In this document: positions 11,937 through 35,120 of the stretch, piece by piece
How positions within the stretch are numbered: position 1 is the stretch's first letter
Layout of the letters: each line of letters starts with the position of its first letter
Origin: an uncultured Desulfospira sp.
Lineage (GTDB): Bacteria > Desulfobacterota > Desulfobacteria > Desulfobacterales > Desulfobacteraceae
Direction of reading: 5' to 3'
Length of the DNA: 64,000 nucleotides
Assembly: GCA_963663165.1 (NCBI GenBank)
Contig: OY760175.1
Coordinates: forward strand, 2,304,001-2,368,000
Made by a program: the position numbers and the translations under genes
Notes under the pieces: generated by a model
The model's database searches: none
The model's input: the letters and a program-made list of their open reading frames with translations, nothing else
Told to the model about the DNA's origin: nothing

Positions 11937-11948
11937 AAAAAACCTATA

Positions 11949-14709: not shown

Positions 14710-14811
14710 GAGTTACTTTATAACACCATATCTTGTGCCAAGCCTTTGCTAAGATTCAAAAAATGTAACGCGGATACGCCAAATCAGCTACAAAATAATA
14801 TAACGGGAAGA

Positions 14812-14880
14812 TATCCCGCCGCTTTACCCCGCCAATAAAATATATAAACCTTACCTCGCTTACCCCGCAGTTATCCCGCC
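14812..14880. repeat. Iteron-like TA(C/T)CCCGC repeats (5 copies)
   Basis: tatcccgcc 14812, taccccgcc 14825, tacctcgct 14852, taccccgca 14861, tatcccgcc 14872. Confidence 0.7.
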
Positions 14881-14940
14881 GCGAATTTTTTCGAAAAAAG
14901 CTTTGCCAATCTATTTGGAAGAAGTCAATACTTCCTTGAT

Positions 14941-14972
14941 AAAAAAGGCTCGAAGCTGCAACTTCGAGCCTT
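14941..14972 (-). terminator. Intrinsic terminator on the minus strand (possible antisense RNA 3' end)
   Basis: 11-bp stem AAGGCTCGAAG/CTTCGAGCCTT ending in a T6 run on the minus strand; no minus-strand gene feeds it. Confidence 0.65.
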
Positions 14973-15057
14973 CAATGTAGACATCCGAGTAGGTTACGGA
15001 AGCCACACCACCGTTTTTATCTAACCACGGCTTCCGTAATTTAGCAAGAGCGGAAGC

Positions 15058-15447
15058 ATGGAAATCGTTTTATTAAAACGTATCGAGTGTAAGCGATGTT
15101 TCCAAATTTTCTATGTGTGCCGCAGTTGCTGGCGGGGGCAGGCATATTGCTGTCAAGAATGCCGCCAGGAGGCCCGCAAAGAAGCGCACTGCAAAGCTCA
15201 AAAAAAATATCGACAAACGCCAAAAGGTAAAGAGGCCCACCGTCGTCAAGAAAAAAACAAAAGATTACGTCAAGCTGAAAAAACCATGGATGATACATCT
15301 ACTATACCCGGTGTAACCCATGATAGTGTCTCTCCCAAGCCATTATGTTCCGGCCCCTGTTGCCATTTTTGTGGGAAAATTGGTTGGGTTGTAGAGCATT
15401 TTCCCTGGCGCGGATATGCAAAACGACCTGTAAGGGCCAATCAATGA
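15058..15447 (+). CDS. Cys-rich basic Zn-binding hypothetical protein
   Basis: CKRC..CRSC..QAYCCQEC, basic helix, C-terminal CHFC. Confidence 0.7.
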   Translation: MEIVLLKRIECKRCFQIFYVCRSCWRGQAYCCQECRQEARKEAHCKAQKKYRQTPKGKEAHRRQEKNKRLRQAEKTMDDTSTIPGVTHDSVSPKPLCSGPCCHFCGKIGWVVEHFPWRGYAKRPVRANQ

Positions 15448-15471
15448 AACATCTTAATGGAGGATAAGACA

Positions 15472-15861
15472 ATGAAAAAAGAAATATTGACAGGCCATTG
15501 CAACAAAATGAAAAACAGATTTTCATCCCGGGAGCTATTTAAACTGAGAAACGATATCCCTGTGGATATGCTGATCCGTGACCATTTACAGATTCCATCC
15601 AAAATCAGGGATGGTGTTTTCCGGTTTTTATGTCCTTTGTGCAATGAGTTTCAAACCGCTGTAAATCCAGCCACCAATCTGGCCAGGTGTTTTCGGTGTG
15701 AGAAGAATTTCAACACCATTGATCTGGTCATGGAAGTCAAGGGATATGGATTCAGGGACAGTGTATTTTTTTTGAAAGAACTGGATGCGGTCTCCTATGT
15801 CCCGGCAAATGTGTTGACGTCTCTTGCCACCGGTATCGGTCAACCCTGGCCTGGGAAGTAA
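15472..15861 (+). CDS. Stand-alone CHC2-type (primase-like) zinc-finger protein
   Basis: FLCPLCNEFQTAVNPATNLARCFRCEKNFNTIDLVM..GFRDSV; GGAGGA RBS before ATG 15472. Confidence 0.85.
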   Translation: MKKEILTGHCNKMKNRFSSRELFKLRNDIPVDMLIRDHLQIPSKIRDGVFRFLCPLCNEFQTAVNPATNLARCFRCEKNFNTIDLVMEVKGYGFRDSVFFLKELDAVSYVPANVLTSLATGIGQPWPGK

Positions 15862-15863
15862 AG

Positions 15864-16418
15864 ATGAAACGGCTGCTTCAACTGGAGACCCTTATTGCCC
15901 GTAATCAGGAGAGTTTCTATAAGATCGGTCAGGCGTTAAAAGAAATCCGTGACAGCCGCCTGTACAAACTGGCCCTGTTTGAGACATTTGAAGCATATAC
16001 CAGGGAACGGTGGGATATGGGCAAGTCCCATGCATACCGCCTGATCAAATCTTATGAAGTGATCTATAATTTGTCCCCAATTGGGGACAAAACACCTGCC
16101 AATGAATCCCAGGTCCGGCCTCTTGCTCAATTGGACCCCCTGGACCAGCGCAACACCTGGAAGGCAATCATAGACAACGGTATTGAGTTAACCGCACGGA
16201 ACATCAAAAAATTTGTAGAGGCCCAAAAAATACCCCCGGAGAACAAACCGGATTTGGCGGAACGGATTTCGGCTGAATACATGGCAGCCGTACATGCAAT
16301 GATTGAACAGGTGCGGGTGGCCCAGCATGATCATTGGCAGCAAACGTCCCGGCAGGCTGCATTGTTGTGGCACAGGGTGATCCGCGAAAAAATTTTATCA
16401 AAAGGGGCAAGACAATGA
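15864..16418 (+). CDS. HTH DNA-binding hypothetical protein (DUF3102/KorB-like)
   Basis: IGQALKEIRDSRLY..TFEAY..ERWDMGKSHAYRLI..PANESQVRPL. Confidence 0.7.
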   Translation: MKRLLQLETLIARNQESFYKIGQALKEIRDSRLYKLALFETFEAYTRERWDMGKSHAYRLIKSYEVIYNLSPIGDKTPANESQVRPLAQLDPLDQRNTWKAIIDNGIELTARNIKKFVEAQKIPPENKPDLAERISAEYMAAVHAMIEQVRVAQHDHWQQTSRQAALLWHRVIREKILSKGARQ

Positions 16419-18082
16419 AGAACCTGAGCCTTGATGACCGTTTTTATTTGCTGCTCCATAAAAAAATCATGAATAAAACCGGATCAGCCAAAAGAAGGTC
16501 CAAAAAATATTACAAAGACCAGTACAGGAAAACCGGCATTATCCCGACGCCCCTTCTACTGGTTGAAAAAGGGATTATGGACGGCCGCAAATGCAGCGGC
16601 CGGCCCCGGTCCATAGATGAACAAACCAAAAGGCGGTTTATCGAAATGGTCAAGGCCTCCTGTGACCCGTCATCCCAGGGGTTTATTTTTATTACCCGAA
16701 AAGCCAGAACCATTAAAAATTACCACTATTGGCTTGAAAGAGAATTGGGAAAAACCATCAGCCTTCCGGCACTCAGGCGATGTGCCCAAAGGGAAGGCCT
16801 TAAATTTTACCTGGAAAAAGAAGATTTTGAAGAAAATGCCCCGGTGAAAAACGCATTCAAGCCTGTTCCGGTGTTTGGCCTGATACAGGTAGACGGTTGC
16901 AACTTTCGATATTTAAAAATCAAAAATGAGGCTGGCCACTGGCAAAAACCCCAAGTCATTGAAACGTTTGATACCGGTTCCCGGTACATGTTTGAACTTG
17001 ATGCCTATTTCGATGAAAGCAGCTTAAGCTCAGTGGATTTGTTTAACCGGTTTTTGCTTTCCACCCCATTTCCCCAGAAGAAAGTCCGGTTCAGGCCGGA
17101 TAACGCCACAGGATTTGTAAATCTCAAAAGAGTCATCAACGCCTTGAATATAAAACATTCCGTTCCCGGAGGATTTTATCTGGCGCCGGATTTTTCAAGG
17201 GTAAGTGCCCCCAGGGACAAGGCCCATCTTGAGTCCTCCCATCGCAGTCTTCATAATTTTGAAATCCGAATCATCAAGGCGTTTGAAGACAGGATTGTAA
17301 AGACCGTTCCAGGGGTTATCTTCAATAATAAGAAAAAAGAAAAAATCACTGTGACACTCCTTGATATTACACTCCGGGATTTAAGACACAGCCCCCTGAT
17401 AAAAGAATACCGCCACGAACATAACCACACCAAACATTATTTTAGCGAAAATGGAAAGATCAGTGCATGGGTTCCGGCACAAAAGCTGGAAGAATTTTTA
17501 TCAAGGCAAGCCGATATCCTTACCTTTTCACCGGATGAGGTGCAGGAATATATGAAGTATGGCTACAGGAAAATAAAAGCCACTGTATCTAACAAAAGAA
17601 CCATTCGCCATGACAACCGGATCTATTGTGTAACCAGTGGTACAGACCGGTTCAGCAGGCATAAAAGTACACCGGTGCAAATATCAGTATATAAGGGCAA
17701 GCTGTTTATTTTTGAACGGGGGGAAGACGGCATACTATTGGGCGAAGCCCTTGCCACAAAGCCGTTTGACAAACCACCTGACCCAAAATCTGTACCAGTG
17801 GCCCCGGATGAACTCGACATGATGATCATTTTTCTGGAAAAGCACAACATGGCCGTCGACCGGCGAGTCTTAATTGAAGCTTATCATAGCGGCCTCACTC
17901 TGGCCCGGGCTCAACAAGTGCTTCATCATAATCAATCCAGGTACAAGAATTATATGAAAAAGATGCGGCAACCTGAAACACAGAAAAAGCAGGCGGTATT
18001 CAATGCCTTTATGCTTGACTGCCGGAAATTGATCAATACAAACCATGTGGCCACGTATGCATCCTGCGGAGATTTAACATGA
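16415..18082 (+). CDS. DDE-type integrase/transposase (Mu/TnsB/IS481-like)
   Basis: N-terminal SGRPRS HTH; IQVDG, FDTGSRY, RPDNATGF, PRDKAHLES triad; ATGA overlap with the upstream gene. Confidence 0.82.
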   Translation: MKNLSLDDRFYLLLHKKIMNKTGSAKRRSKKYYKDQYRKTGIIPTPLLLVEKGIMDGRKCSGRPRSIDEQTKRRFIEMVKASCDPSSQGFIFITRKARTIKNYHYWLERELGKTISLPALRRCAQREGLKFYLEKEDFEENAPVKNAFKPVPVFGLIQVDGCNFRYLKIKNEAGHWQKPQVIETFDTGSRYMFELDAYFDESSLSSVDLFNRFLLSTPFPQKKVRFRPDNATGFVNLKRVINALNIKHSVPGGFYLAPDFSRVSAPRDKAHLESSHRSLHNFEIRIIKAFEDRIVKTVPGVIFNNKKKEKITVTLLDITLRDLRHSPLIKEYRHEHNHTKHYFSENGKISAWVPAQKLEEFLSRQADILTFSPDEVQEYMKYGYRKIKATVSNKRTIRHDNRIYCVTSGTDRFSRHKSTPVQISVYKGKLFIFERGEDGILLGEALATKPFDKPPDPKSVPVAPDELDMMIIFLEKHNMAVDRRVLIEAYHSGLTLARAQQVLHHNQSRYKNYMKKMRQPETQKKQAVFNAFMLDCRKLINTNHVATYASCGDLT

Positions 18083-18741
18083 AGGCAGATTTTATCAGTG
18101 ACAAACGAAGGGTATCATACCTGAGCGCCACTTATAGCCGGATCTACCGGGGCCGGAGCGTACTCATTGAGGGAGATTTTGGAGCGGGAAAAACCAGGTT
18201 TTTAAAACTGCTTCGTCCCAAAAAACTTCATGCCGTATGGGTAGAGTCCCTGTTCAACATACACGAAACCCTGGCATCCATACTCAAAGAATTGAACTAT
18301 GACACCACAGCCACATATCGCAGAACTCCCCAGTACCTGAAAATGATCTGCAACCTGTCCAACTGCTTTATTATTATTGATGAGGCCAATGATCTGGATA
18401 CCAGGGTCTGGCCATATCTTAAGCGGATCATTGATGCCGGTGTTCCTATTGTTTTTGCAGGGCTTCCAAAGGTCAGGACCTATTTGATTCGCAATCACCC
18501 TGATATCCTCAGCCGGTTGAAAACCCTGATTTTATATCCCATAGAGGTTGAGGGCTTTATCGAACAATATAAAGATATCCAGCAGGAAGCCGTTGAGCAA
18601 ATTTATATGGCGGTCAAAGGCGACATGCGTAAATTTAAAGAAATCTGTACTGACTGCCGGGACAAGGCAAAGGAATTGAACCACCAATTTGTTGACATTA
18701 ATCTTGCCCTGGAGTTTATATCTGACCTTCCTCCCCAGTAA
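18079..18741 (+). CDS. AAA+ ATPase, transposition helper-like (TniB/ExeA-like)
   Basis: Walker A GDFGAGKT, Walker B IIIDEA, ILSRL; ATGA overlap with the transposase. Confidence 0.85.
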   Translation: MKADFISDKRRVSYLSATYSRIYRGRSVLIEGDFGAGKTRFLKLLRPKKLHAVWVESLFNIHETLASILKELNYDTTATYRRTPQYLKMICNLSNCFIIIDEANDLDTRVWPYLKRIIDAGVPIVFAGLPKVRTYLIRNHPDILSRLKTLILYPIEVEGFIEQYKDIQQEAVEQIYMAVKGDMRKFKEICTDCRDKAKELNHQFVDINLALEFISDLPPQ

Positions 18742-18763
18742 TCCCTGAAAAGTAGATCCGTAA

Positions 18764-18803
18764 AAACAGGCCACTTCTGATTTAACCGGAAGATGGCCTG
18801 TTT
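18764..18803 (+). terminator. Hairpin after the ATPase gene
   Basis: AAACAGGCCA...TGGCCTGTTT followed by a T-rich tract. Confidence 0.6.
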
Positions 18804-19335
18804 ATATTTTGACCTTAATTGATTAACGCAATTTTTCGCCTGGATATACCTGTGAAAATCAGGGAACCACAGATTGTTTTTGAATCTTTTTTGAACCGTT
18901 ACATTAATTTGCAACTTTCAATATTTTTGACTGCCAACCTAACCTACTAAATTTATATGAAAAACCATTTCTTTTTTGAAATAATGAACGAAAAAAAATC
19001 CGTTACATTATTTGAATGTGAGCAAGCCTTTATGATAAGGCGATGGAGACTACAAACGCTAAGGCTCACCCTCGAATTGTGGGAGGCCGAAGGACTGAAA
19101 AAAGAATTGAACGGCGTTATTGACAAGGGTTCAGGTCCACAATGATACCATTATGTTGCGAGTGGGTCTAACCTGTTAAATTTAAAGGCGATTTTAGCTA
19201 TTCACATTGCAAATCAATATTGTATTAAAATTCAACACGTTAAAAGTTATTTTAGAAATTTTAAAGATCAGTGGCAACATAATTTTTTGTTTTACTACAT
19301 ACCCCTCCAAAGCTAGCAAAAGCTGCTTCAGTGGT

Positions 19336-20355
19336 TCATAAACTGTCAAGCCAGGCAAGGATTTCAGCACTATTTCCCCAGTCGATTAACTCATCAATTT
19401 TTTTGTCATGAGTTATTTTCGATTGCATGTATTCCATGAGCGTATTTTGGACTTCCCGTTTTTTTGACAGATCCAGCTGCAGATAGGTCATTGTTGATTC
19501 AATACTTTGATGACCAAGACGATTTTTGATATCCGATACCGGAGCACCTGAACTGACCATGTTGACCGCGCACGAATGCCTGAAGCAGTGAGCCGGGCTC
19601 AGTCCTTTCAGCCGTTTTTCCGGCAAGGCCAAGGTCAAATACTTCCTGCAAATTTTATTAATTCCATGTCTGGTCATTTCCCGCTTCCGTTGATTGATAA
19701 ACAGCCTATGGGCAAATAAAGGGATGGGATCTACCCTGTGATTGCTGATATAGTCCGAGATCAAGGAGGCGGTTCTGGAGCATAGATTAATCAACCGGTA
19801 TCGGTTTCCCTTTCCCAGGACCGCAATGGTTTCGTTTTCGGGGTCAAAATAATCAAATTCCAATGTGGCAATTTCACTGGCCCGGGCACCGGAGTCATAA
19901 AGCAGATGGAGAATGGTAAAATCCCTCATGCCTTCTTTCTTTTTCAGATCAACGGCACTGAAGACTTTCATGATTTCTTCAGGATATAAAAATCCCATCA
20001 CCTTTTTTTGAGCTCTTTTCTGAGGGATGTTCAGGAGCCTATCGGCAATTCGTTTTTTATCCGGATGCATGAAGCGGATCATCTTGGCCAAAGACTTAAT
20101 CACGGCCAGGCGTTGGTTTCGAGTCTGCACGCTATTTTTTCGGTTTTTTTCCAGATGCTGGAGAAAGGCAAGCACTGCATCCACCGTTAAGTGTTCGATT
20201 TTCAATGACTTGATTTTTATTGAGTGATGATTCGCCAGAAAATGCAGAAATAACGACAGGCTCTGCTGGTAAGCTTGAACACTTTGTTTGCTCGTCCCTT
20301 TTATCGAGGGCAAGTATTCATAAAAATACTGGTGCAGGCAACTTGTCAATCTCAT
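19336..20355 (-). CDS. RIT tyrosine recombinase C
   Basis: SGARASE, GKGNR, HCFRHS, LGH, TYL. Confidence 0.92.
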   Translation of the reverse strand: MRLTSCLHQYFYEYLPSIKGTSKQSVQAYQQSLSLFLHFLANHHSIKIKSLKIEHLTVDAVLAFLQHLEKNRKNSVQTRNQRLAVIKSLAKMIRFMHPDKKRIADRLLNIPQKRAQKKVMGFLYPEEIMKVFSAVDLKKKEGMRDFTILHLLYDSGARASEIATLEFDYFDPENETIAVLGKGNRYRLINLCSRTASLISDYISNHRVDPIPLFAHRLFINQRKREMTRHGINKICRKYLTLALPEKRLKGLSPAHCFRHSCAVNMVSSGAPVSDIKNRLGHQSIESTMTYLQLDLSKKREVQNTLMEYMQSKITHDKKIDELIDWGNSAEILAWLDSL

Positions 20356-21326
20356 GCACCCTCGCTTTTTGATTTCGAAAAATCAAACAGTTGCCAACGG
20401 TGCTCAGCATCCAGTACCTTCAAATAATAGGTTGTGTATTTGTATTTGCTGTGCCCCATATAAGCCGCCAGTACAGGCAGGGCATTTTGGCAGGATTTTC
20501 CTTGCTGTTTTATCCTTTTCAGCGTGTTCACAGCAAACGAATGCCGCAGGGAATGATGTGAAGGCTGGCTGAAGTTTGTAGTACCGATTATTTTCCGGGA
20601 GTGATCAAAATTAATATCTGTGAGAGCCTGTTTAAATCTGCGATTTATAAACATACGTACCAGTTTTTTCCCTTTCACCTTTACCAGCAAAAAAGGGCTG
20701 TCATCCTCATCAGGGAATAACCGGCGAACTTTTAGCAGGTTGTTGATTTCATAGGCTACGGCTTTGGGTATAGGGATCAATCGATCTTTTCTAAATTTTG
20801 TCTTTTCAATATAGATTGTTCTTTCTTCGGGCCTGTAATGGGTTTTCAATAAATTAAGTGTCTCCGAGGTTCTAAGTCCGCACCGGGCCATCAACAAAAA
20901 GGCTATATAAGCACTGAAATCTGACACATAGAATCTCTGGCTTGTCCGCATCGACTTGATTACAGCTTTGAGAAAACGGTCTGTTTCTTCCGGAGAAAAT
21001 ATAAAAGGAATAACGTGATTTTCCTGTAGCTCAGTGATTTCCTGCAACGGATTTTCCAGAATCACATCTTTGCGTATAAGATAATTGAAAAAGATCTTGA
21101 GCATTCTAAAAATCGTATTTATGGACCGGGGTTCAAGATCAAGTTCTGCTCTGAACCGGATAAAAAACAGCGGATCAAAGGATGTCCAAGTCACTTGTTT
21201 TTCAGACACATATCGATCAAGTACCCTAAGACCGTACATCATTGAGGTGTTTGAGTACCCCAGTTGAAAACGATATGTGATAAAATCCTCCATTTGTTCA
21301 GCCAAGAAACTTTTAAAACGTTTCAT
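20352..21326 (-). CDS. RIT tyrosine recombinase B
   Basis: CGLRTSE, TKFRKDRLIP, HSLRHSFAV, LAAYMGH, YYL. Confidence 0.92.
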   Translation of the reverse strand: MKRFKSFLAEQMEDFITYRFQLGYSNTSMMYGLRVLDRYVSEKQVTWTSFDPLFFIRFRAELDLEPRSINTIFRMLKIFFNYLIRKDVILENPLQEITELQENHVIPFIFSPEETDRFLKAVIKSMRTSQRFYVSDFSAYIAFLLMARCGLRTSETLNLLKTHYRPEERTIYIEKTKFRKDRLIPIPKAVAYEINNLLKVRRLFPDEDDSPFLLVKVKGKKLVRMFINRRFKQALTDINFDHSRKIIGTTNFSQPSHHSLRHSFAVNTLKRIKQQGKSCQNALPVLAAYMGHSKYKYTTYYLKVLDAEHRWQLFDFSKSKSEGA

Positions 21327-22200
21327 CAAGGATAACCTCCCGCATCAGGCCGATATGAATGCTCAGATACTTTTTTGTCGAATCGAGGCTTTTATGTCCC
21401 ATCATTTCTTTGATTTCATAGATGGACATACCGGACTCCAACATATTCTGGGCAAATGAATGCCGCAGCCAGTATGTGCTTGATCCAAGATTGTTTTTCG
21501 TCATGCATTCTTTTATATCTCGGGGGATATCGCTCCTGTTGGCCGGTTTATAAGGTGGTGTCAACTGTAAAAATAGAACTCGGGATTGAGTTTCAGGTCT
21601 CCCGCCCACAATATAGGCAGTGATCGCTTTGATTATGTTATCGGGAAGGGGAAGATGAGCAGGATTGCAATTTTTTCTTGAACGGATAAAAATCTCTTTC
21701 TGTCTAAATGAGATGTCATCCAGAGTTAGCAACCTGATTTCTTTCGGCCTTAACCCCAGATAACATGCCAGATGCAGGGTGGCATTGGTGCGAAGGTCTT
21801 TTGCTGTTGACAGGTCCAGACTGTCAAACAACTTTTGAATTTCATGAGTGCGCAAAAATTTGGGCGGCTTTGGTGGTCCGAACTCCGGAGGGCTTACCAC
21901 TAAAGCGCCAAGGTCCTTTTTAAGATCTCCGTGTTGATAAAGGTACTTTAAAAATCTTCGTACATGTGACCGGTGCGTCCTGCATGTCCCGGGAGCACGC
22001 CCCTTGTTGCAGACTGCTAAAAATTGATCGACCTGGTCAATGGATATGTTGCCCAAAGAGGTGTTTTCCCCCTGAAGATAGGCCGCAAAATTTGTTAATG
22101 TCCTTTTTGTATAGGACACCGCATCCCCGGAAGCTTGATCTCGACAGTAGTCCAGGTATTTCTCCACTGCTTTGGTGACCTTATTGTCAACTTCCATCAT
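21313..22200 (-). CDS. RIT tyrosine recombinase A
   Basis: LGLRPKE, RSRKN, YWLRHSFA, MMGH, KKYL; ATG 22200 with GGAGG RBS. Confidence 0.9.
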   Translation of the reverse strand: MMEVDNKVTKAVEKYLDYCRDQASGDAVSYTKRTLTNFAAYLQGENTSLGNISIDQVDQFLAVCNKGRAPGTCRTHRSHVRRFLKYLYQHGDLKKDLGALVVSPPEFGPPKPPKFLRTHEIQKLFDSLDLSTAKDLRTNATLHLACYLGLRPKEIRLLTLDDISFRQKEIFIRSRKNCNPAHLPLPDNIIKAITAYIVGGRPETQSRVLFLQLTPPYKPANRSDIPRDIKECMTKNNLGSSTYWLRHSFAQNMLESGMSIYEIKEMMGHKSLDSTKKYLSIHIGLMREVILDETF

Positions 22201-22672
22201 GGCTGCCTCCAAAAGATTGCAGGACAAGGCTGCGGATGGTTGCCGGATCGTGCAGTTCCATGTCTTTTTGGCTTTGAAGGGGGGCTGCTGAGGGCAGAGC
22301 CACTCTTTCCGGAAGGGACAATACTTGGAAAAGGTTGCCGTCAAATGCGACCAGGTTCTTGTCAATCAAGGCATTCCTGGCAAGGATGTAGTCATCAACA
22401 CAAATCCTGAGCAGGGTGCAGATTTTATCATAGCCGTAATAGGACAGCCCATGACGATCCGCCACGATAATCAAAAACAGGTACAGCAGGAGCTGATGAT
22501 GATCCAGGCTTGCCCAGAATCCGTCCCGCAGGAACCGGTGCTCGATAAAAGCAAAGCTTCCTGCAATTTTTCTGATGCGGCAGGGATCTATGGGATTTTT
22601 TGCAATGGACGCACGAAAACGGCGTTGGGGCTTTTGATTCCGATTTTTGGCTTTATTTTGTCCGGTCTCCAT
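22187..22672 (-). CDS. Winged-HTH hypothetical protein (Rep-like HTH), RIT1 cargo
   Basis: SFAFIEHRFLRDGF..LLYLFLIIVADRHGLSYYGYDKICTLL..ARNALI; AAGGAGG RBS. Confidence 0.7.
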   Translation of the reverse strand: METGQNKAKNRNQKPQRRFRASIAKNPIDPCRIRKIAGSFAFIEHRFLRDGFWASLDHHQLLLYLFLIIVADRHGLSYYGYDKICTLLRICVDDYILARNALIDKNLVAFDGNLFQVLSLPERVALPSAAPLQSQKDMELHDPATIRSLVLQSFGGSHDGS

Positions 22673-22719
22673 GGCATTGCCTCCTTGAAATGATCGTTAA
22701 AGGCAATTTACCCTTTTTC

Positions 22720-23328
22720 TCAGGGGGGATCAGGCCCCGTTTGTTGTTGGAACCGGCTTTTTCCATGATGTTTTTTTTGAGGGCGAGGGCCAAACCCTAA
22801 CGGCGGTGGCAGGATATCCAAATGTGAAGCGGCAAGTTCCCGGAGATGGGGTAAAACAAACTCAACCCCAAGTGCAGATCTCAATGATGATAAGGTTGCC
22901 TGACCATCATTGGATAAGGACGGAATCAGGTCGATTAATAAAATCAAACTTACATGAATCAAAAACAGTCTGTGCCTCATCCATCGCAAGACACCAGGCA
23001 GGCCGATATCTGGACGCATATTGTCTGCTGCGGCCTCCTGGCTTGGTGCTGCTTCGATCTGATTGATGACCGTTTCCGCCTCCATCAGTGTCCCTGGCAG
23101 ACGTGAGGACAGGCAATCGGGCAACAGCCCGAAGGTGGTCCTGCCATCCGGACAATACCACCGGGCGATTTTTGCACCGTCGGGATACTTTCTGCAATAG
23201 GTCCCATGCCTGGCAAATTTGCAGCCACCTTCCGGATGTAACGGGCACCGATCCAGTTTTGCATCTTTCCATGCCTCCTCCTCTATATATTGTTCAACAG
23301 GAATGTCGGTGGCGAATCGGAGCTGCAC
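22720..23328 (-). CDS. Zn-ribbon/HTH hypothetical protein of transposon-associated type (DUF6431-like), RIT1 cargo
   Basis: CPLH..CKFARHGTYCRK..IARWYCP..TTFGLLPDCL. Confidence 0.6.
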   Translation of the reverse strand: MQLRFATDIPVEQYIEEEAWKDAKLDRCPLHPEGGCKFARHGTYCRKYPDGAKIARWYCPDGRTTFGLLPDCLSSRLPGTLMEAETVINQIEAAPSQEAAADNMRPDIGLPGVLRWMRHRLFLIHVSLILLIDLIPSLSNDGQATLSSLRSALGVEFVLPHLRELAASHLDILPPPLGFGPRPQKKHHGKSRFQQQTGPDPP

Positions 23329-23357
23329 GACTTTAACCTTGCGTTAAAATTCAAAAT

Positions 23358-23783
23358 ATGAAACATTTTCCCATGGCAAAGATCGGTCGCAATACACCAT
23401 GCCCTTGCGGCAGCGGTAAGAAATATAAGAAGTGTTGTTTGTCGTTGCAGTCAGCGGGAACTCAACCCAAGCCCTATCCTGCCGGGTTTACACCAGTTTA
23501 CACGGAATTGGATCTGCTTTCAAACAGTGTGATTGATCTGATCGATGAAAACAAATTCGACGAGGCAGAAGCTGTATCAAAGAGATTATTGCATGAATAT
23601 CCAAATCAGATTGACGGCTTTCACAGGTTGGGACAGGTCTATGAAGCTCAGGGAAAAAAGCATGAAGCGGGAGAATACTATCAAAAAGCCGCAGATTTTG
23701 CCCGGACAATGCCGGGTTTTGATCCGGAAACTGTTGAACGCTTCCTTTTAAAAGCAAAGAAATATAGGGAAGAAGCAAAGTAG
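23358..23783 (+). CDS. SEC-C motif + TPR protein, RIT1 cargo
   Basis: [23 protein letters not shown]-like [21 protein letters not shown]. Confidence 0.85.
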
Positions 23784-24416
23784 AAAAACTATATCCAAAG
23801 AAAATAACTCATTTAGAACTTTTTATAGAAGAAAATCTCGCTACAAAAAAAGTCGCAACATAAATACCATTAAAGCCCACCTTGATATTCCTTGTTTGCA
23901 TCATGGATACCGCCCAATTATTTGAATGGATAGAGAATATAGGCTGATAAAAAACGGTTAACTTCTGGCAAATCAATTTTCAAAGTATTTTGCCCTGAAT
24001 AGTCTTTACACGACCCAACCAAGCTGATATGCAATCCACGTATATACTAATGATGATAACCGATCCGGTTATCCGTTAATTCCTCTTGATATGCTGATAG
24101 ATATCAGATTGCTCAAGATAATCGGACAACTACTTGTACACCTGAACCTCATGAGGCTGAACGCAGATACAGGTTATTTGAATTTGGAGGACTAATGGTC
24201 GCTGATCCAACAGGATGGATATCTGATTTTTACTGGCACCTATGGCTTTTTTTTTCTGAAAACAATGATCAATTTTTCTACGGATTTGCTGCTCCTTCGC
24301 ACCATCGCCCCCCTTTATCTCCACACAGGTCACTTGTTGGGTACGATTCAATTGTCGAGTATCATACAGGCTTAGACCCCAAAAAATTCGAATCCTTTCA
24401 GGAAGATCTATCCTGA

Positions 24417-25676
24417 TTATATCGGATTTTGGGGAGGGCTTCGGTACCCACCCAAAGAAGCCGAAATGTAAAGGTTATGCAACCAGTTGTCGTGATATCT
24501 AAATTGATTCAGCCTTTCAGCTGGGCTTTTGAATCCGTTATGCCTTTTGACGGTTTCCGGGTTGTAAGGAGCAAAATTATGAATGAGTGTCCATCCTCGA
24601 ATGCTCAGTTGCGCTGCATCCATTACTCCATGAAAATATTGAGTGCTGAACAGATGGCGATCCATTCTTTGCATCAATCTGTCAACCATGTTGCTCGTTC
24701 TGTGTGCCTTGGGATGATCATAGGCGTTTCTGTATGAAACAATATTTTTCCGTAATTTGTTTATGGGGTCTGATATAACATTCGGAGCATCTTGCTTTTT
24801 GCACCATTCGATCAACCTCCTGATTCGCTGTGAAAATGATATTTTGCTTTCAGCCCGATAACAATCCCATAGTTTTGATGCTGTTTCATCAAAAATGTCT
24901 CTGTATTTCTTCTTTGCCCTATCACGAATTTTTATGAATACATGCAAAAAACAACAAACGATGGCTACCGATGGAAAAAGGCTTTTCCATGCCTGCCGGG
25001 TAGCTTTCCATCCGTCTATATTGACGGTCTCCGGAGAATATTCAGGCCGAAGGCATTGGGCTTCATCCCGGTAAAATTGATAAGCTCCAGTCAAGGCTTG
25101 TTTTCCAGCATTTTGAGCAACAGACGCTCCAAGAATGCAGCCATTTCCAACAGTTGTTGCCACATAAGTTTTTTCTCCCAGAATCCGGGTATGCTTCTCA
25201 TCCGCCGCAAGATGTTGCGGGATGTCTTCCGGTTGTCGGATGGTTGTTCCAACGATACTATTGCGACCAAGTGACTGCTCAATCCGGTACCAATACATTG
25301 GATCCTTACCGAAAATGTGGCTCAGTGCCCAGAAGGGCACATTAAATTTTCGCATAAAAAGAGCTTTTTCAACCTCATCGACCAAGCCGGTGAGATAGGG
25401 TGTCACAAAGGAAGGGCGGACTGTGTAAGCAATGCCGGACATCTCGATTCGCCGAATAGGGATCAACATTTTTTTTGAGTGATAGATATCTTTCATTCGA
25501 TATCCTTCTCTGGAAATTTCAGCTGGAAATAGTTCCGGGAAAAGCTCAATCCTTTCATTGAGACAGTTCCGAAATTTGTCAGGATTTTGAATGTTGTCAT
25601 TATAATCATCTTGAGAAAAAGGCACACATATGGTTCTATGGTTTCGGATTGCGGATTCTGTATCTGTTTCCCACAT
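24417..25676 (-). CDS. Transposase
   Basis: AADEKH, NIDGWKA, CCFLH, RTSNMVDR; stop codon inside the IR. Confidence 0.85.
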   Translation of the reverse strand: MWETDTESAIRNHRTICVPFSQDDYNDNIQNPDKFRNCLNERIELFPELFPAEISREGYRMKDIYHSKKMLIPIRRIEMSGIAYTVRPSFVTPYLTGLVDEVEKALFMRKFNVPFWALSHIFGKDPMYWYRIEQSLGRNSIVGTTIRQPEDIPQHLAADEKHTRILGEKTYVATTVGNGCILGASVAQNAGKQALTGAYQFYRDEAQCLRPEYSPETVNIDGWKATRQAWKSLFPSVAIVCCFLHVFIKIRDRAKKKYRDIFDETASKLWDCYRAESKISFSQRIRRLIEWCKKQDAPNVISDPINKLRKNIVSYRNAYDHPKAHRTSNMVDRLMQRMDRHLFSTQYFHGVMDAAQLSIRGWTLIHNFAPYNPETVKRHNGFKSPAERLNQFRYHDNWLHNLYISASLGGYRSPPQNPI

Positions 25677-25711
25677 ATAGTTAGAGACCTCCTTGGCGGG
25701 TTTGGTCTCTA

Positions 25712-25740
25712 ACTATATGAAATTATTGACAAAAAGTCTA
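25712..25740 (-). promoter_or_regulatory. Putative sigma70 promoter of the transposase
   Basis: TAGACT-N17-TATAGT on the minus strand; the -10 lies inside a 16-bp IR (25674-89/25704-19) covering the ATG. Confidence 0.6.
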
Positions 25741-27217
25741 GTCGGAATTCCCTTTGATTTCAATGGGTTACGAAAAAGTTTTTTACCCCCTTCCAATGAT
25801 TAGAGCGGTTTTGGCCTCTGTTCCCCTAAATCCGTTATAATCAGGATCTATCAAATGGACATTTAAGAACTAATTTGTTGGGACAGGGCGGCCCCACCCT
25901 TAACGTAAAAATCCAATTTATACAAAGGAGCTTCCAAAATACCCTTGGGTGTACCGCAGTTCCTGTGACCACATACTATTCCATGTCGCTAGCGGAATAT
26001 AATGTTTCGCGGGAAGGAATCAAACGTATGCTGGGCCATCTTGTTACCGAGAAAACTTTTGATGAGCCAGAACGGTATATGCACCGACTGGGGGCCTTTG
26101 ATATTATTAACTTACCGAAGCACGCCGAAGATGAGCAATACATCCTTAATTTTCGTCTACCAAAGCGACGGGATGTTTCCATGACGCCCCACCATAGAAA
26201 TTCCTATGAGATTTGGCGCAGGGATGATTTTGCACAAAACCGGCACTGGGCACATGTTTGTCTTTACAGCGGAGAAACTCCGGTGAGTGACGCTCTTCAT
26301 ATTCTTGACCCAGAAGTGAGGGTGTTTGGACCTGTCGCTATAGATGAAACATTTGATAGAACTGAATTTCGACTTTTTGATGAAAAGGGACTCTTACACC
26401 ATGAGGAGTCCGTATGGATTAATCAGTTTGCTATGAATTTTTCCATAGGGCAAGGAACTATTAGGTATGACAGCCCATTGACAGATCGTGGCAAAGGAGG
26501 AGGTGCTGTTGATACTGTCGAATCTTTGACCAATATAAGTGTTCGCTCTCGGGGTCGTGAAAGTATAACGAATGTAACAACCGGACAAGAATTCCGTGAT
26601 TATTGCCGAGAAATGCGTGAACGAGGTAAAACGTTATTCAAATCGCCTTCACCGGATAGATGGTTTCCCAAAGGAATAACAGGATCGTTGAATACATTGG
26701 AACATGTCAAAACATTGATTGAGGGTCAAGGTGTCATAAAAGTGTGGATTGTTGATCCTTTTTTCGATGCGAGGGCTGTGGAAAATCTTATTCCAACTAT
26801 TGGGGTCAGCAACCTTGAATTAGTTGTTATTACAAACCTAAGAAATATTGATGCATGCCGAGAGATTGGCGAAGGGGAAAACGAAACCGATCCTGTGAGT
26901 AACTTGGAAAAGAAACTTGATGTTCTTCGACCAATTATCCACTGTAACCTGAAAGTTAAAAACCTTCACACTACCCCGGGTTCAAATGAACAGGTTTTTC
27001 ATGACCGATATTTGTGTCTTAAAATGGGAAAAGACAAAGTTTCAGTTTATCTGCTCTCAAACAGCTTTAACGCTTATGCAGAGAATTATCCCTTCTGTCT
27101 AAGTCAATTGAGCGGCTTTGCGGCTAAAAATGCCTATGATTATATTATTAATCTTGAAGGTTTGAAAAATCCAGTCACTGGTTCGAATCTGTACTGTGAT
27201 CCTGACTGGAGTAAATA

Positions 27218-29269
27218 ATGTGTAAATCCATTCCACAAGAACAATTTCCCTGGATGGCATGGTTGTTACGCAAATTGTCTTCAAAAGAGGAACCGGCTGA
27301 TGATCAGCTTTTCAACAACGCTGCAAATCAAGGATGGTTGACTTGGCAAGAGCATGGTTTCTGGCGTGTTTGTGGAGCATGGGCGAAGGGTCTTCCAACT
27401 AATAAAGCCATAGTCGAGCATATTTTGACTGTCGACGATGCTGCCCACTTCGCCATGGCCATGGGAGAACTATCATCTGGTGTAAACGGCTTCCCGCTGG
27501 ATGCATGCAGCAAGGCGTTGAATGAAAGCCCTGGATTTCAAAAAAGTGATGCGGTTTTTCAACGGATTGGTGAGCTGGCTAAAAAAAATTACCCTTCTGT
27601 TGAATGTAATTTGGATACGCTTAAAGTTGCGCAATTTATAAATTCGTGCCAGTTAGATTATGATTCTTTTCAGATGGTTTCTTCTTTCACTGATTACCCC
27701 AGGTTCCTCAAGCCATTGAGGAGATACGGTTTATCTTACGGCATGTATATAGCATACATGTTAAATTTCAAAGCTTTTGGACTGTGGCTATCTCGGCAGA
27801 GCGACCCGGCTCTGATCGTCCCAACTCTCAGCCAATTTTCTATACTTTTCTACTTAGCTGATCAAAAAACCGTTGTTGGGCTCCTTAATTCCAGGCATCC
27901 GTTCCTTCAACTAAATGGGATCATGGCCCTGCATGCTTATCGAGATAAAGGGACCACATGTGACTGGCACTACCCATTGGAACAGGCCTTTGCAATAGTC
28001 GATAAGACTGAGCTATCTATAGAGGACTTCGCCTGGACTACATTTAGTCGTTTTAATGAGTTTGAAGGGCTTTGTGGACGTGCAAAAGGGGTTTTTGAGT
28101 ATCAAGTAAAGCAAGGCCCTGAACTTTCAGAAAAAGCAAAAGAGTCCAAAGAAAGGTATGAAAAAATTGTTGCTAGTATGGAGGATGAACTGTCAGTTTT
28201 TACCAATCACTTCCCCAAAAATGGGATAAACGAGAAACAGGCCTCTTATGTTTTGGGGGTTACTCGTGGGCGGCTTGGACTTCCTCTGCGGGTGGCAGAA
28301 AAGCTCCCAGAAAAAACAAAGAAGACGCTTGTTAAAGCGATTTTCAAAAGATTTCACTCCCAGACAGGTATTTTCAAATTAGCGAGTGAAACAGAACACT
28401 ATTCGTTGCCCTATCGTTGGAAGCAGCGTGTGAACTATTCTGCGCGAGCTTTTGTGCAGTATCATGCAGGCAAGAATATAGGCAGAAAATTTGGTTCTCT
28501 CGCCAAACCAGTGGAAGATGCACTTGTGCCGAATATGCTTGAACCATACTTATACTATCGGCGACATCATAAATGGATGCATGTTTTTGGCAGATTAGGT
28601 TTACTTTATTTTTATACAATAGAAATCGCAAAGACGTCTGATTTGGAAACAGAGAAAGGGGGTAGCTTTTTAATTCAGCATATGGTTAAGCAAACCCTAA
28701 TTTTATTTTTGCATTATTCAGGAGAGTATTTCACATCATTATACGATGTGTTAAGTCTTCGAGTAGCGAATCTGTTCGAGGGGAAGGTTAAGAAAGACAC
28801 GTTAGAAGAGTTGAAGGCTTTTGTAGACCATCCTCGAGGGTATTCGATTACAAAATTGCTTTTGGTTTGGACTCTCCCAGAATTATTTGAAGGTTATAAA
28901 AATAAGGTGATGCATCTGTTTAGAATTTTTGATCTACTCCCACCTGACGAAGACGGTATACTTGAAAGATTTTCAGCCTATGCAAATATTATGGATCGTG
29001 CCCTTGTGGCTGCGCACAGGATGAAGGATTTATCTTTAAGCAACGAATTGGTGGCTGACTGGGAAAAGAGGTTCTCAGTCTGGAAACCGGTTGTAGGCTC
29101 TAAATGGTTGCTCGCGCCACATTGGCAACAAAAAGCCTTGAGCGGAGATAATGAGGGGTATACGTGGCTTTGTGGATTGCCTGAGCTTAGTAACTGCTTG
29201 TGTCGAAGGTACTGTGACGAGATGTACATAAAACATAGAGGGGCAAACAAAGATAATACGAAAATATAA
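27218..29269 (+). CDS. Hypothetical 683-aa protein, translationally coupled to the VPA1262-like gene
   Basis: Long ORF, TAATG overlap with the upstream stop; no motif recognised. Confidence 0.75.
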   Translation: MCKSIPQEQFPWMAWLLRKLSSKEEPADDQLFNNAANQGWLTWQEHGFWRVCGAWAKGLPTNKAIVEHILTVDDAAHFAMAMGELSSGVNGFPLDACSKALNESPGFQKSDAVFQRIGELAKKNYPSVECNLDTLKVAQFINSCQLDYDSFQMVSSFTDYPRFLKPLRRYGLSYGMYIAYMLNFKAFGLWLSRQSDPALIVPTLSQFSILFYLADQKTVVGLLNSRHPFLQLNGIMALHAYRDKGTTCDWHYPLEQAFAIVDKTELSIEDFAWTTFSRFNEFEGLCGRAKGVFEYQVKQGPELSEKAKESKERYEKIVASMEDELSVFTNHFPKNGINEKQASYVLGVTRGRLGLPLRVAEKLPEKTKKTLVKAIFKRFHSQTGIFKLASETEHYSLPYRWKQRVNYSARAFVQYHAGKNIGRKFGSLAKPVEDALVPNMLEPYLYYRRHHKWMHVFGRLGLLYFYTIEIAKTSDLETEKGGSFLIQHMVKQTLILFLHYSGEYFTSLYDVLSLRVANLFEGKVKKDTLEELKAFVDHPRGYSITKLLLVWTLPELFEGYKNKVMHLFRIFDLLPPDEDGILERFSAYANIMDRALVAAHRMKDLSLSNELVADWEKRFSVWKPVVGSKWLLAPHWQQKALSGDNEGYTWLCGLPELSNCLCRRYCDEMYIKHRGANKDNTKI

Positions 29270-29478
29270 GTATATTATCAAAAGCTGACAACGAAGGTGT
29301 TATCAAGGCTTTTTAATTATGAAATTAAACCGTTAAATGATTTGACTCAACAATGAACATGCTGGGGATAAAGCCGCATATGTTCAGGTTAAAAATCGAA
29401 AATGAGTCAAAACCTTTGAGGAATAGCAAAGTGAGCATTTTGTCTATTTATGTAGCGAGTTTTTTTTGTTGCGTGTTC

Positions 29479-29544
29479 TACCCCGCCCGACCCAGCTGGA
29501 CCCCGCTATACCCCGCCATATTTTGAAAAAATACTACCCCGCCA
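29479..29544. repeat. Iteron-like (T/G)ACCCCGC repeats, 10-bp period
   Basis: Copies at 29479, 29489, 29499, 29509, 29535. Confidence 0.75.
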
Positions 29545-29583
29545 CCATCCATCCGATCATAGATCTAAGGAGGTATCAGGTCT

Positions 29584-30123
29584 ATGAAAAAACAAATCCG
29601 ACAGCGCAGGTGTAAAAACTGCCAAAATTTATTCAAGCCAGATCCCCGTCATTTGAAACGGCAAAAATTTTGTAACGAACCCGAATGCAAAATTGCCAGT
29701 AAAAAACACAGCCAGCAAAAATGGCTGAATAAGCCAAAGAATCAGGATTATTTTTCAGGGCCTGAGAATGTGGTCCGTGTTCAGGAATGGCGCCAAAGCA
29801 ATCCTGGTTACTGGAAGCGAACAAAGCCTCCGGGAAAGCCATCCTTAACTGAAAATACGTTACAAGAGATAAAAACTGCCAAAACCATTGCTGGTAAAGG
29901 ATCTTCGATGGATTTAATTCAAATACCGTTACAAGATTTAATATCGGCCAAGACCCTTGTCTTTATTGGGTTTGACACCCTCCTTAACAAAAATGCGTTA
30001 CAAGAGATTATTGATGCCACGGACCAGGAGACGGTAAAATTGACACCAGATATTATGAAGGAACTAACCAAAAAGAAGAGGTGTCAGCATGGGCAAACGA
30101 TTTTCTTCAAAGGAACTTTATAG
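29584..30123 (+). CDS. Cys-rich basic hypothetical protein, RIT2 cargo
   Basis: CKNC..RQKFCNEPEC..SQQKWL; AAGGAGG RBS. Confidence 0.7.
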   Translation: MKKQIRQRRCKNCQNLFKPDPRHLKRQKFCNEPECKIASKKHSQQKWLNKPKNQDYFSGPENVVRVQEWRQSNPGYWKRTKPPGKPSLTENTLQEIKTAKTIAGKGSSMDLIQIPLQDLISAKTLVFIGFDTLLNKNALQEIIDATDQETVKLTPDIMKELTKKKRCQHGQTIFFKGTL

Positions 30124-30397
30124 ATTACGAAATTCAATACCCATTCATGTGTTGATCGAAACGGAACTGGGTATTCCAGCCAAAATAAGTGAAGGGGTTT
30201 TCCGTTTTCTGTGTCCCTTGTGCAATGAATTTCAGACTGCAGTTAATCCTAAGACGAACCTGAGCAGGTGTTTTCGATGCGAAAAGAATTTTAATACCAT
30301 AGATCTGGTAATGGCCTGTCGGCACATTGGTTTTGTTGACAGTGTCAAATATCTTCAGATTATTTTGAATACAAGAGCACCTGATCATGACGTCTGA
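30089..30397 (+). CDS. CHC2-type zinc-finger protein, RIT2 cargo
   Basis: FLCPLCNEFQTAVNPKTNLSRCFRCEKNFNTIDLVM; near-identical core to 15472..15861. Confidence 0.85.
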   Translation: MGKRFSSKELYRLRNSIPIHVLIETELGIPAKISEGVFRFLCPLCNEFQTAVNPKTNLSRCFRCEKNFNTIDLVMACRHIGFVDSVKYLQIILNTRAPDHDV

Positions 30398-31346
30398 TTT
30401 GGGAACAGAACTCAATATACAGTCTTATCGTCGATGTCGAGTGCCGGCAGAAATAATGCCGCCACTCGGCCTTCCGTTGCCGGAAATTTTTCATGGGTAT
30501 CTGAATTATTACAAACACCAGCTTCGTAACGAAAACAATATCGGCGCAATGAGGCAAATACTGATGAGTTTTCATTTTTTTCTTCAAACGTCAGGCATTC
30601 TTTTAAATGAAATATCCATTCATCAGGTTGATCAATTTTTAGCCCGTTACAACACCAATTATTCTGCCGGGGCAGCCAGATCTAACCGGTCACATCTTCG
30701 GCAGTTTCTCAAGCACCTCTACCGAGGCGGGTATATCAAAAAAGACATCTCTGTGCTGGTGGTGAGCCCTCCTGAGTTTGCTCGGTCAAAACCACCGAAA
30801 TTCTTGCGCCCCCATGAAGTGCAAAAAATGTTTAAGCTCATGAATTTGTCAACAGCAAAAGATCTCCGTATTTATGCGGCTATGCACCTGGCATATTTTT
30901 TGGGATTGAGGCCCGGAGAAATCAGCTCACTTACCCTGGATGACATCTCTTTCAGGCAAAAAGAGATTTTTATTCGTTCGAGAAAAAATTACAGCCCTGC
31001 TCATCTTCCTGTGCCGGACAATGTGATCAAGGCCATCACCGCTTATATTATCGGCGGGAGACCAGAAACCCAATCTCGAACCTTATTTTTACAGTTAGTG
31101 CCGCCTTATAAACCGGTTGGCAGGAGCGACATCCCCCGTCATATAAGAGAATTTATGGCTGATAGCAATCTTGAGTCAAACACATATTGGCTGAGGCATT
31201 CTTACGCCCAGAATTTGCTGGAGTCCGGTGCTTCCATTTATGAGATAAAAGAAATGATGGGCCATAAAAGCATCGGAGCAACGCAAAAATATCTGAGCAT
31301 CCATATCAACCTGATGCGGGAGGTTATCCTCGGTGAAACGCTTTAA
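30387..31346 (+). CDS. RIT tyrosine recombinase A
   Basis: LGLRPGE, YWLRHSYA, MMGH, QKYL. Confidence 0.9.
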   Translation: MTSDLGTELNIQSYRRCRVPAEIMPPLGLPLPEIFHGYLNYYKHQLRNENNIGAMRQILMSFHFFLQTSGILLNEISIHQVDQFLARYNTNYSAGAARSNRSHLRQFLKHLYRGGYIKKDISVLVVSPPEFARSKPPKFLRPHEVQKMFKLMNLSTAKDLRIYAAMHLAYFLGLRPGEISSLTLDDISFRQKEIFIRSRKNYSPAHLPVPDNVIKAITAYIIGGRPETQSRTLFLQLVPPYKPVGRSDIPRHIREFMADSNLESNTYWLRHSYAQNLLESGASIYEIKEMMGHKSIGATQKYLSIHINLMREVILGETL

Positions 31347-32307
31347 AAGCTTTCTTAGCGAATATATAGAGGATTTTATCGAATACCGTCTTCAATTGGG
31401 ATATTCAGATAAAATGCTGCTGTGCAGCCTTCGGTTGCTGGATCGGTATGTTGCCCAAAGGGATGTGACCTGGACATCATTTGATCCGTTGTTTTTCATC
31501 CGACTCCGTTCAGACCTCAATTGTGAAAACCGTTCCATCAATACATTTTTTCGAACGTTTCAAATGTTTTTCAAATATCTGATCCGCAGAGACCTGATTT
31601 TGACAAATCCCATACAGGAGATTGCTGAGCTGCCGGAAAATCAGATTATCCCTTTTATTTTTTCTCCGAAAGAAACGGATCTTTTATTGAAAACTGTCAT
31701 AAAACAGATGCGAAAAACAAAAAAATATTACCTCACCGATTTTAGCGGTTATATCTCTTTTCTGCTGATGGCCCGGTGCGGCTTGAGAATATCGGAGACG
31801 TTCAATTTGCTGCAAAAGAACTACAGGTCTGAAGAAAGGACAATCTATATTGAGAAAACAAAATTTAAAAAAGACCGACTGATCCCAATACCCAAGGCCG
31901 TTTCTTGTGAAATCGACAATTTTTTGAACGTGCGACGGCTTTTACTTATTGCCGATGTGCATCCTTTATTATTGATCAAAGGAGATGGCGGAAAGTTACC
32001 CCGCCATTTCATGGATCGAAAATTTAAAAAAGCGATTTCGGCCATTAACCTTGATCAGCACAAAAAAATTATTGGTGCTACAAATTTCAGCAACCCGACA
32101 CGGCACTCACTTCGTCATTCCTTTGCTGTAAATACACTGAAACGAATTAAACAACAGGGCAAGTCTGCCCAAAATGCGTTGCCGGTGCTGGCCGCTTACA
32201 TGGGACACAGCGAATACAAGTATACGACCAAATATCTGAGAGTTCTGGATGCAGAGCATCGCCGCCAAATGCTTGATTTTTCGATGTTGAGAAGTGAGGA
32301 TGTATGA
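31333..32307 (+). CDS. RIT tyrosine recombinase B
   Basis: CGLRISE, TKFKKDRL, HSLRHSFAV, YMGH, KYL. Confidence 0.92.
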   Translation: MKRFKSFLSEYIEDFIEYRLQLGYSDKMLLCSLRLLDRYVAQRDVTWTSFDPLFFIRLRSDLNCENRSINTFFRTFQMFFKYLIRRDLILTNPIQEIAELPENQIIPFIFSPKETDLLLKTVIKQMRKTKKYYLTDFSGYISFLLMARCGLRISETFNLLQKNYRSEERTIYIEKTKFKKDRLIPIPKAVSCEIDNFLNVRRLLLIADVHPLLLIKGDGGKLPRHFMDRKFKKAISAINLDQHKKIIGATNFSNPTRHSLRHSFAVNTLKRIKQQGKSAQNALPVLAAYMGHSEYKYTTKYLRVLDAEHRRQMLDFSMLRSEDV

Positions 32308-35079: not shown

Positions 35080-35120
35080 AATACAAAGATTGACAATTAT
35101 TGTATTTTGACTATTATGAT
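35080..35120 (+). promoter_or_regulatory. parDE promoter with overlapping operator palindrome
   Basis: TTGACA 35090-95, TATTAT 35112-17; IR AATACAAAGATTG/CAATTATTGTATT. Confidence 0.65.

Follow-up and report, generated by a model that had tools for sequence, protein, structure and literature searches.

A DnaG-type zinc-binding domain and its linked terminal repeat array as a probable exchangeable helper of transposition in Desulfobacterales elements

A zinc-binding domain and a repeat array at element ends

In a 64,000-bp stretch from an uncultured Desulfospira sp. (contig OY760175.1 of assembly GCA_963663165.1, positions 2,304,001–2,368,000; the whole stretch is called the window below), two transposons with unrelated recombination enzymes, E1 (14747..19024, plus strand) and R2 (29448..33510, plus strand), were found to carry the same small module: a stand-alone DnaG-type zinc-binding domain (ZBD) and an array of short direct repeats of the type (T)AYCCCGC at one element end. 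The ZBD and the array very probably form a swappable pair of protein and end site that helps transposition, and the ZBD is a strong candidate for binding the array directly. A first-pass annotation had described a portable protein-plus-repeat module common to two unrelated recombination engines; this observation is real and broader than first described, since the module, a transposon accessory system with a proposed mechanism, was found in four classes of element. Assistance to transposition in cis is favoured here over an origin for free replication, and the more specific proposal that the bound end helps the host replication machinery to copy the element out is a tentative one, to which we give somewhat less than an even chance.

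In E1, the array (14812..14880, plus strand) consists of five repeats of the A[CT]C[CT]CGC type that surround an A+T-rich spacer and start at 14813, 14826, 14853, 14862, and 14873, and in R2 (29479..29543, plus strand) the five copies start at 29480, 29490, 29500, 29510, and 29536. The repeats begin 67 bp (E1) and 33 bp (R2) from the element termini, directly inside the terminal recombinase-site repeats. Both modules were found where they had been annotated, with five repeats, a basic Cys-rich ORF (CysA, 15058..15447, in E1; CysB, 29584..30123, in R2; both plus strand) and a zinc domain of 102–117 aa matching PF01807, encoded on the plus strand at 15508..15861 in E1 (longest ORF from 15457) and at 30089..30397 in R2. 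The 10-bp periodicity noted at first was seen in R2 (spacing 10, 10, 10, and 26) and not in E1 (13, 27, 9, and 11).

The two ZBD cores were near-identical, as first described (36 of 38 residues the same; 70% over 90 aa), and their zinc ligands were C-x2-C…C-x2-C (Cys4) and not the CHC2 set after which the domain had been named. Cys replaced the His ligand in 148 of 149 ZBD representatives examined; the host DnaG retains the His. Both window ZBDs matched Pfam Zn_ribbon_DnaG over the cut-off, and an AlphaFold2 model of the tail-less R2 ZBD (pLDDT 91.7) gave a Foldseek match to the zinc domain of B. stearothermophilus DnaG (PDB 1D0Q; E 3.3e-5, TM 0.70), which the sequence profile of the family also matched over positions 1–89. 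The E1 ZBD has a short C-terminal tail. No TOPRIM gene was detected in E1 or R2 by a Pfam scan. At E 1e-10 the family comprised 466 clusters, and it was present in 43 of 301 genomes of the class, in 3 of 401 phylum-wide, all within its own order, and in one plasmid record. In a quick tree the ZBDs grouped as a single clade, well removed from the three DnaG-type proteins that the host genome encodes, and the recombinase class changed four times along the tree compared with a least possible number of three. Because the ZBDs cluster by class, moves between recombinase classes appear to have been few, with no recent exchange between E1 and R2.

In the 6.74-Mb genome, 15 clusters of at least three A[CT]CCCGC motifs within 110 bp were found, compared with ~0.16 expected by random placement. 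Every one lies 0.6–0.8 kb from a ZBD gene (2.1 kb in one case, with an IS inserted), and the genome has 15 ZBD genes. No cluster was present in 17 copies of three elements with a winged-helix gene, though 13 of these copies, from two elements, carry the CysA of E1, and a link of the repeats to the Cys ORF was thereby ruled out. The three-part cassette of iterons, Cys-rich ORF, and CHC2 finger proposed at first thus did not hold: co-occurrence was found for the motif and the ZBD alone, and the Cys gene is freely exchanged.

We annotated 130 ZBD loci and 70 winged-helix loci; dereplication left 44 and 43 elements, and in 42 of either kind the relevant end was in view. With a threshold of at least three repeats within 90 bp, the array was present in 34 of 42 ZBD elements (E1 type 13/14, RIT 12/12, IS21 6/11, and ExeA type 3/5) and in 0/42 winged-helix elements, and an outward-oriented array in 0/42 ZBD elements; because the two motif patterns were tuned on the same sequences and the elements are related to one another, these figures are counts and not probabilities. 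Four architectures combine ZBD and array, namely Cys-ZBD-Orf3-DDE-AAA, Cys-ZBD-RitABC, Cys-ParB-IstA-IstB-ZBD, and DUF6431-DDE-ExeA-ZBD; plasmid pHRM2a carries an annotated example.

In the IS21 class the ZBD gene comes last and an inverted array occupies the right end, and in the ExeA class the array lies at the left end, ~3.2 kb from the ZBD gene; the common gene order described at first, with the array upstream of the ZBD gene, does not extend to these two classes. The array was always found directly inside the terminal recombinase repeats, with the C-rich strand reading inward. Because these two classes place the array elsewhere relative to the ZBD, the fixed reference of the array is the terminus rather than a gene or the transcriptional direction, and the association of ZBD and array is not one of simple linkage. 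A functionless array, inherited simply as part of a left-end block, is therefore very improbable. Array and ZBD do lie within 1.3 kb in RIT and E1-type elements, and the few cross-class moves would suit such hitchhiking, but the array is retained while the intervening Cys gene is exchanged, two classes retain it at another end or at a distance of 3.2 kb, and the repeat spacing is conserved.

A recombinase-anchored sample, overlapping the first sets, was in agreement and gave 28 RitA loci (18 with a winged helix, 4 with a ZBD, 2 with a Cys gene only, and 4 with too little flank) and 14 Orf3 loci (12 with a ZBD, 1 with a winged helix and a TTC array, and 1 unrelated). Nine of the 12 ZBD-bearing Orf3 loci had the array, two were on short contigs, and one had two repeats. 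Several IS21-ZBD elements (L032, L036, L037, L038, L043, and L044) had termini of the CTATAGCGCT type rather than TG...CA and a ParB-like gene aboard. Two further readings of the repeats were rejected. A role as transposase sites was ruled out, since they occur at a single end and differ from the TGTAACG and TTATGTWGCG repeats of the termini, and no bias indicating lagging-strand targeting was seen, with 8 of 15 ZBD copies in leading and 7 in lagging orientation.

At its core the array has two repeats 22–28 bp apart (25–26 bp in 18 of 29) around a spacer of 77% A+T, and the origin-like anatomy noted in the first-pass annotation is in this respect confirmed. The spacers showed no excess of -10 boxes over shuffles (10/29 vs 9.8 inward; 3 vs 10 outward). 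This argues against the array being a transcriptional operator, on which a protein would repress or activate the operon of the element or a junction or antisense promoter, and we consider such a role rather improbable. For three of the four classes the left terminus and the first gene flank the array, a promoter-like site was found 30 bp downstream of the E1 array (one found, 0.5 expected), and CysA elements have a conserved structured leader, but IS21 elements have the array at the extreme right and oriented against transcription.

An alternative winged-helix pair and second arrays

A winged-helix gene follows the Cys gene in three elements of the source genome: R1 (4 copies), a second RIT (8 copies), and a true IS21, E3 (5 copies). 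R1 (19150..23870, minus strand), a RIT of this alternative type with CysC, served as control within the window and has no ACCCCGC repeats. Its winged-helix protein (22187..22672, minus strand), assigned by HTH_36 and a fold search, occupies the ZBD slot, and TTC-type repeats with four matches to the family motif pattern lie just inside its left end (23760..23835, minus strand). TTCTTC/TAATTC-type repeats were found at this same position in 35 of 42 winged-helix elements (shuffled mean 3.6) and in 0/42 ZBD elements. HTH_36 was present in 28 of 41 family members, and the fold search gave staphylococcal RepA_N as the top match (Z 8.3, rmsd 3.6, 86 aligned), with Geobacillus DnaB at Z 7.5 (rmsd 2.7, 84 aligned). 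In a RitB tree of 24 rows, which includes two long rows that are unrelated neighbouring RITs, the label ZBD or winged helix switched eight times with the array type following, which is not fewer than with shuffled labels; within IS21 it switched twice.

The alternative module extends to Betaproteobacteria: on a Caballeronia plasmid (NZ_CP049160; L203), istA-istB are preceded by two hypothetical genes, the second of which is a winged-helix homologue. Two RITs (L293 and L294) have a Cys gene and a TTC-type array without a winged-helix gene and are possibly dependent derivatives. The five E3 copies are all in lagging orientation by GC skew, a small sample.

The Cys gene between array and ZBD was of at least eight sequence types. 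Both window modules carry a Cys-rich ORF, as annotated, and the two proteins proved to be only remote relatives: CysA and CysB gave no tblastn match, and hhalign aligned them over the N-terminal 68 columns (probability 74%, E 2.9e-5). Three Cys families (CysB, CysD, and CysB2) each have their own separate array. CysB genes carry GTTACAAGA three times, with 69 bp for 41 of 42 spacings; in R2 this second array lies inside cysB (29859..30005, plus strand; copies at 29859, 29928, and 29997). All 50 distinct LQ[DE] motifs in CysB are coded TTA CAA, compared with 124/304 and 164/275 elsewhere. The repeat of CysD elements is a different one that lies in non-coding DNA, spaced 69–70 bp in 39 of 39, and CysB2 elements have a third kind, spaced 59–87 bp. 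The Cys proteins likely bind these second arrays.

E1 (CysA) has no 69-bp array and a conserved leader hairpin instead (14945..14972, plus strand; 11-pair stem), which showed compensatory changes at five pairs across 17 leaders and matched no Rfam family. In the leader at 14939–15060 there is also a CGGAAG/CTTCCG pair for which an alternative partner exists close to the start codon; this leader is attenuator-like and is conserved across both ZBD and winged-helix elements. CysA is zinc-finger-like, with cysteines that are invariant, and no match to it was found in Pfam or NCBIfam.

In CysD spacers an IHF-like site was present at one fixed place, with exact matches to the IHF consensus in 8 of 39 compared with 0.13 in shuffles. 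Xis, Fis, and the Mu enhancer act as architectural factors, and a similar role may be considered here, in which the ZBD or the winged helix together with the Cys protein would bind the arrays, bend the DNA jointly with IHF, and render one end able to enter synapsis. This role is possible though on balance doubtful, and ranks just behind help with copy-out because of the helical phasing and the IHF-like sites. The array abuts the recombinase sites, spacings cluster at 25–26 bp and 69–70 bp, near half-integral helical turns, and A-tracts occur in 20 of 29 spacers compared with 13.6 in shuffles. An enhancer would, however, have to serve four different recombinases, DDE and tyrosine chemistry among them, CysB spacers were not enriched for IHF-like sites (0/42 exact), and it would remain unexplained why both interchangeable proteins resemble replication-initiation domains.

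Possible role of the bound end in copying the element out

In the favoured mechanism, which follows the primosome-recruitment and copy-out branch of the first-pass annotation, the ZBD of an element would bind the repeat row that lies just within one end of that element. More tentatively, the recombinase may first join one strand end to end, fork assembly would then have to take place at the array end, and the bound protein might open the A+T core or pass it to the host helicase or primase. Help with a replicative step is favoured because it best fits a function that is independent of recombination chemistry and polar with respect to the ends. Both interchangeable proteins have folds used in replication initiation (the DnaG ZBD, and the HTH_36/RepA_N-like winged helix, the latter match being non-specific), and DnaG ZBDs can act in trans in primases, according to the available part of PMC2978363. 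In the portions available of the respective sources, IS21 appears in a list of families that form circles and are presumed to use copy-out (bioRxiv 10.1101/2023.06.07.543989), replication converts the asymmetric figure-eight in copy-out (PMC7780238), and the same route is proposed in a model for a tyrosine-recombinase element (PMC10214605).

At G000:6328325-6328374, the right end of an E1 relative (E1c) is joined through 2 nt to an E1 left end, and the two junction bases match the last two of the other flank of that E1, a single event with a chance of 1 in 16. This junction would fit the array end being the attacked end. A search for RIT-type junctions gave seven matches, six of which were palindromic ends of other RITs. 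In a metagenome contig (Ga0315536_1007787; L273), the right end of a CysA/winged-helix RIT, a hexamer, and the left end are joined head to tail, which could represent either a circle junction or a tandem dimer. In its accessible text, PMC5737581 did not resolve circles of RITs.

The complement of the repeat contains d(GTA)/d(GTC), trinucleotides listed for T7 primase forms in the available part of PMC2978363; this may suit a reading of the repeats as primer start sites, but seven conserved bases are more than a trinucleotide would require.

An I-G-x-I-L helix was found at the C-terminus of 50 of 107 long ZBDs (3.3 in shuffles) and of 12 of 53 winged helices; a likeness of this tail to the N-terminal helix of DnaC/DnaI loaders found no support in the PDB. 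A more general reading is that of a recombinase-independent plug-in steering the host replisome, in which a replication-derived head (the primase zinc domain or a RepA_N/DnaD-like winged helix), often on a shared helical tail, would mark one end via its cognate array and start the copy-out fork. We hold this to be possible and less probable than its copy-out component taken by itself. If true, a DnaG zinc domain would have turned into a sequence-specific repeat binder, and these RITs would move by copy-out.

Several results weigh against these readings, besides the kinship of the sampled elements. Binding of the array by the ZBD and any activity of the pair are predicted from sequence and co-occurrence. 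The three-repeat threshold was missed by 5 of 11 IS21 and 2 of 5 ExeA-type elements, some of the misses carrying degenerate or variant arrays (L038 and L041). DnaG ZBDs read three bases of single-stranded DNA, in the part of PMC2978363 available, so that a 7–8-bp site would demand a new recognition mode. Both window ZBDs are without the I-G-x-I-L motif, the tail profiles of ZBDs and winged helices aligned weakly (hhalign probability 1.8%), and no helicase loader was matched by the tails in the PDB. The RepA_N match was tied with CRP and MarR winged helices (Z 8.1–7.6) and is thus non-specific, and the winged helix had no Foldseek match at E 0.001. The junction at 6328325-6328374 was not bridged in four sequencing runs, E1-type junctions were found in 1 of 401 genomes (its own) with no metagenome matches, and no circle joint of E1 or R2 was found in contigs of the four runs. 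RIT flanking hexamers showed no consistent strand bias and included conflicting cases, the MuB-like ATPase and 6-bp duplications of E1 suit non-circular pathways equally well, and archetypal RITs are described as three genes only in the accessible part of PMC3414803.

That the module is a minimal origin letting excised circles replicate on their own, as first suggested, is most improbable. The direct repeats around an A+T core, the ParB-like genes of the IS21 class, and the precedent of TnGBS circles (PMC3942029, available part) are compatible with it, but the elements lack a primase catalytic domain, helicase, or replicase, the best 150 ZBD homologues are 97–245 aa in length, and 15 arrays sit in the chromosome. 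Read depth showed no excess either: in contigs of four runs, two of them from one sample, depth relative to single-copy flank was 4.1–5.9x for E1 and 1.5–3.1x for R2 against 6 and 4 assembled copies, a weak measure that is not a copy number.

Other features of the elements and the window

E1 has TG...CA ends, a 6-bp target duplication (AGCCTT), and six identical copies in the genome, four of which are flanked by a perfect 6-bp direct repeat. Its left-end TGTAACG-type repeats (14764..14806, plus strand), mirrored as CGTTACA in inverted repeat at the right end, are kept in relatives and are presumed to be bound by the transposase. Downstream of the ZBD gene, all on the plus strand, are Orf3 (15864..16418), a conserved helical protein with a weak match to the Borrelia partition-protein family NF033725 (E 5.9e-6, under the cut-off), a divergent DDE-type transposase (16415..18082) with invariant and putatively catalytic D159, D228, and E272 (numbered from 16418), and a MuB/ExeA-like AAA+ ATPase (18079..18741) matching AAA_22 and the DNA transposition protein phrog_296 (E 1.4e-11). 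A PDB sequence search returned nothing for the E1 transposase, Orf3, or the winged helix. Relatives of E1 with a different Cys gene are present in five copies.

R2 has TTATGTWGCG inverted ends, a GTCTAT hexamer on both sides, and four copies, and its empty site is spanned by contigs from runs X1 and X6. Its ritA, ritB, and ritC genes, which overlap one another (30387..33323, plus strand; overlaps of 14 and 4 nt), encode three tyrosine recombinases, each with PF00589. The R2 target site (33511–33530) itself resembles a RIT left end (TTATGTTGTGTG), which suggests that RITs may target related ends. In R1, a SEC-C/TPR passenger gene (23358–23783) lies on the opposite strand, as in all CysC-type RITs seen. 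The surrounding stretches (9579–13250, 24417–29269, and 33717–36421) have the context of a hotspot, with GmrSD-like and putAbiC genes, a multi-copy Mutator-like IS, two large unannotated ORFs, a split rhuM, and two toxin-antitoxin pairs.

Elsewhere in the genome, DnaG-like primase genes with an intact CHC2 were found beside tyrosine recombinase genes (G000:C1:1804183-1806732, L208, and 1252249-1253857, L209). The L208 primase continues for 850+ aa, and two further 886-aa primase-like ORFs are present at 4.92 and 5.55 Mb. L208 and L209 are a separate primase-plus-recombinase element type.

Comparison with known systems

Like described RITs, R2 and R1 both have three tyrosine recombinase genes that overlap (and are adjacent in R2), together with inverted ends, and both exist as identical copies. 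At 4.06 kb with two leader genes, R2 differs from RITs described as ~3.5 kb with recombinase genes only, and R2 and R1 have two cis arrays besides their leader genes; the mechanism of the described RITs is untested in the available parts of the sources (PMC3414803; PMC10214605). R2 is thus an extended RIT variant. E1 resembles the IS21 family and MuA/MuB-type DDE+AAA transposons in its TG...CA ends with internal repeats, DDE triad, and AAA helper, and has the short target duplication of IS21, but its transposase was not detectably IstA-like (no BLAST match; hhalign probability 0.2% vs 17 IstA). Its ATPase matched AAA_22 and phrog_296, with no match to an IstB family. By the comparison of predicted transposases, E1 is a DDE/AAA transposon and not an IS21. 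True IS21 relatives carry the same ZBD module, and accessory site-binding genes are absent from the IS21 family description so far as it was covered.

As in TnGBS (PMC3942029) and the IEE PrimPol (bioRxiv 10.1101/2023.06.07.543989), in the parts of these reports available, replication proteins would act on circular or copy-out intermediates; those systems use a plasmid-like replicase or a full primase-helicase, whereas the module here consists of non-catalytic binding domains and cognate terminal sites. Compared with the ZBD of DnaG primase (PDB 1D0Q and 2AU3), the module ZBD has the same fold across the whole domain and differs by its Cys4 ligands, separate clade, linked 7–8-bp repeat, and lack of a catalytic domain.

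A description of the module was not found in the literature searched (CHC2/primase with transposase, IS21 with ParB, and RIT), though the curated catalogues ISfinder, TnPedia, and Ricker 2013 may list such elements. These elements also show that 'CHC2 / DNA primase' entries in Desulfobacterales often flag transposons, and that accessory modules, beyond cargo, are traded between DDE and tyrosine-recombinase elements. Fork assembly in copy-out transposition is left to the host; the matched, exchangeable protein-site pairs of these elements, with exact coordinates, make both this step and the movement of RITs accessible to binding assays and swaps.

Iteron replicons with RepA_N-type initiators, and the sites of Xis, Fis, and the Mu enhancer, are comparable in layout, sharing direct repeats, an A+T core, IHF-like sites, and a winged-helix binder. 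The ZBD is not a known Rep initiator, and the module described here differs from these systems in being terminal in multi-copy chromosomal transposons and in having two interchangeable protein-site pairs.

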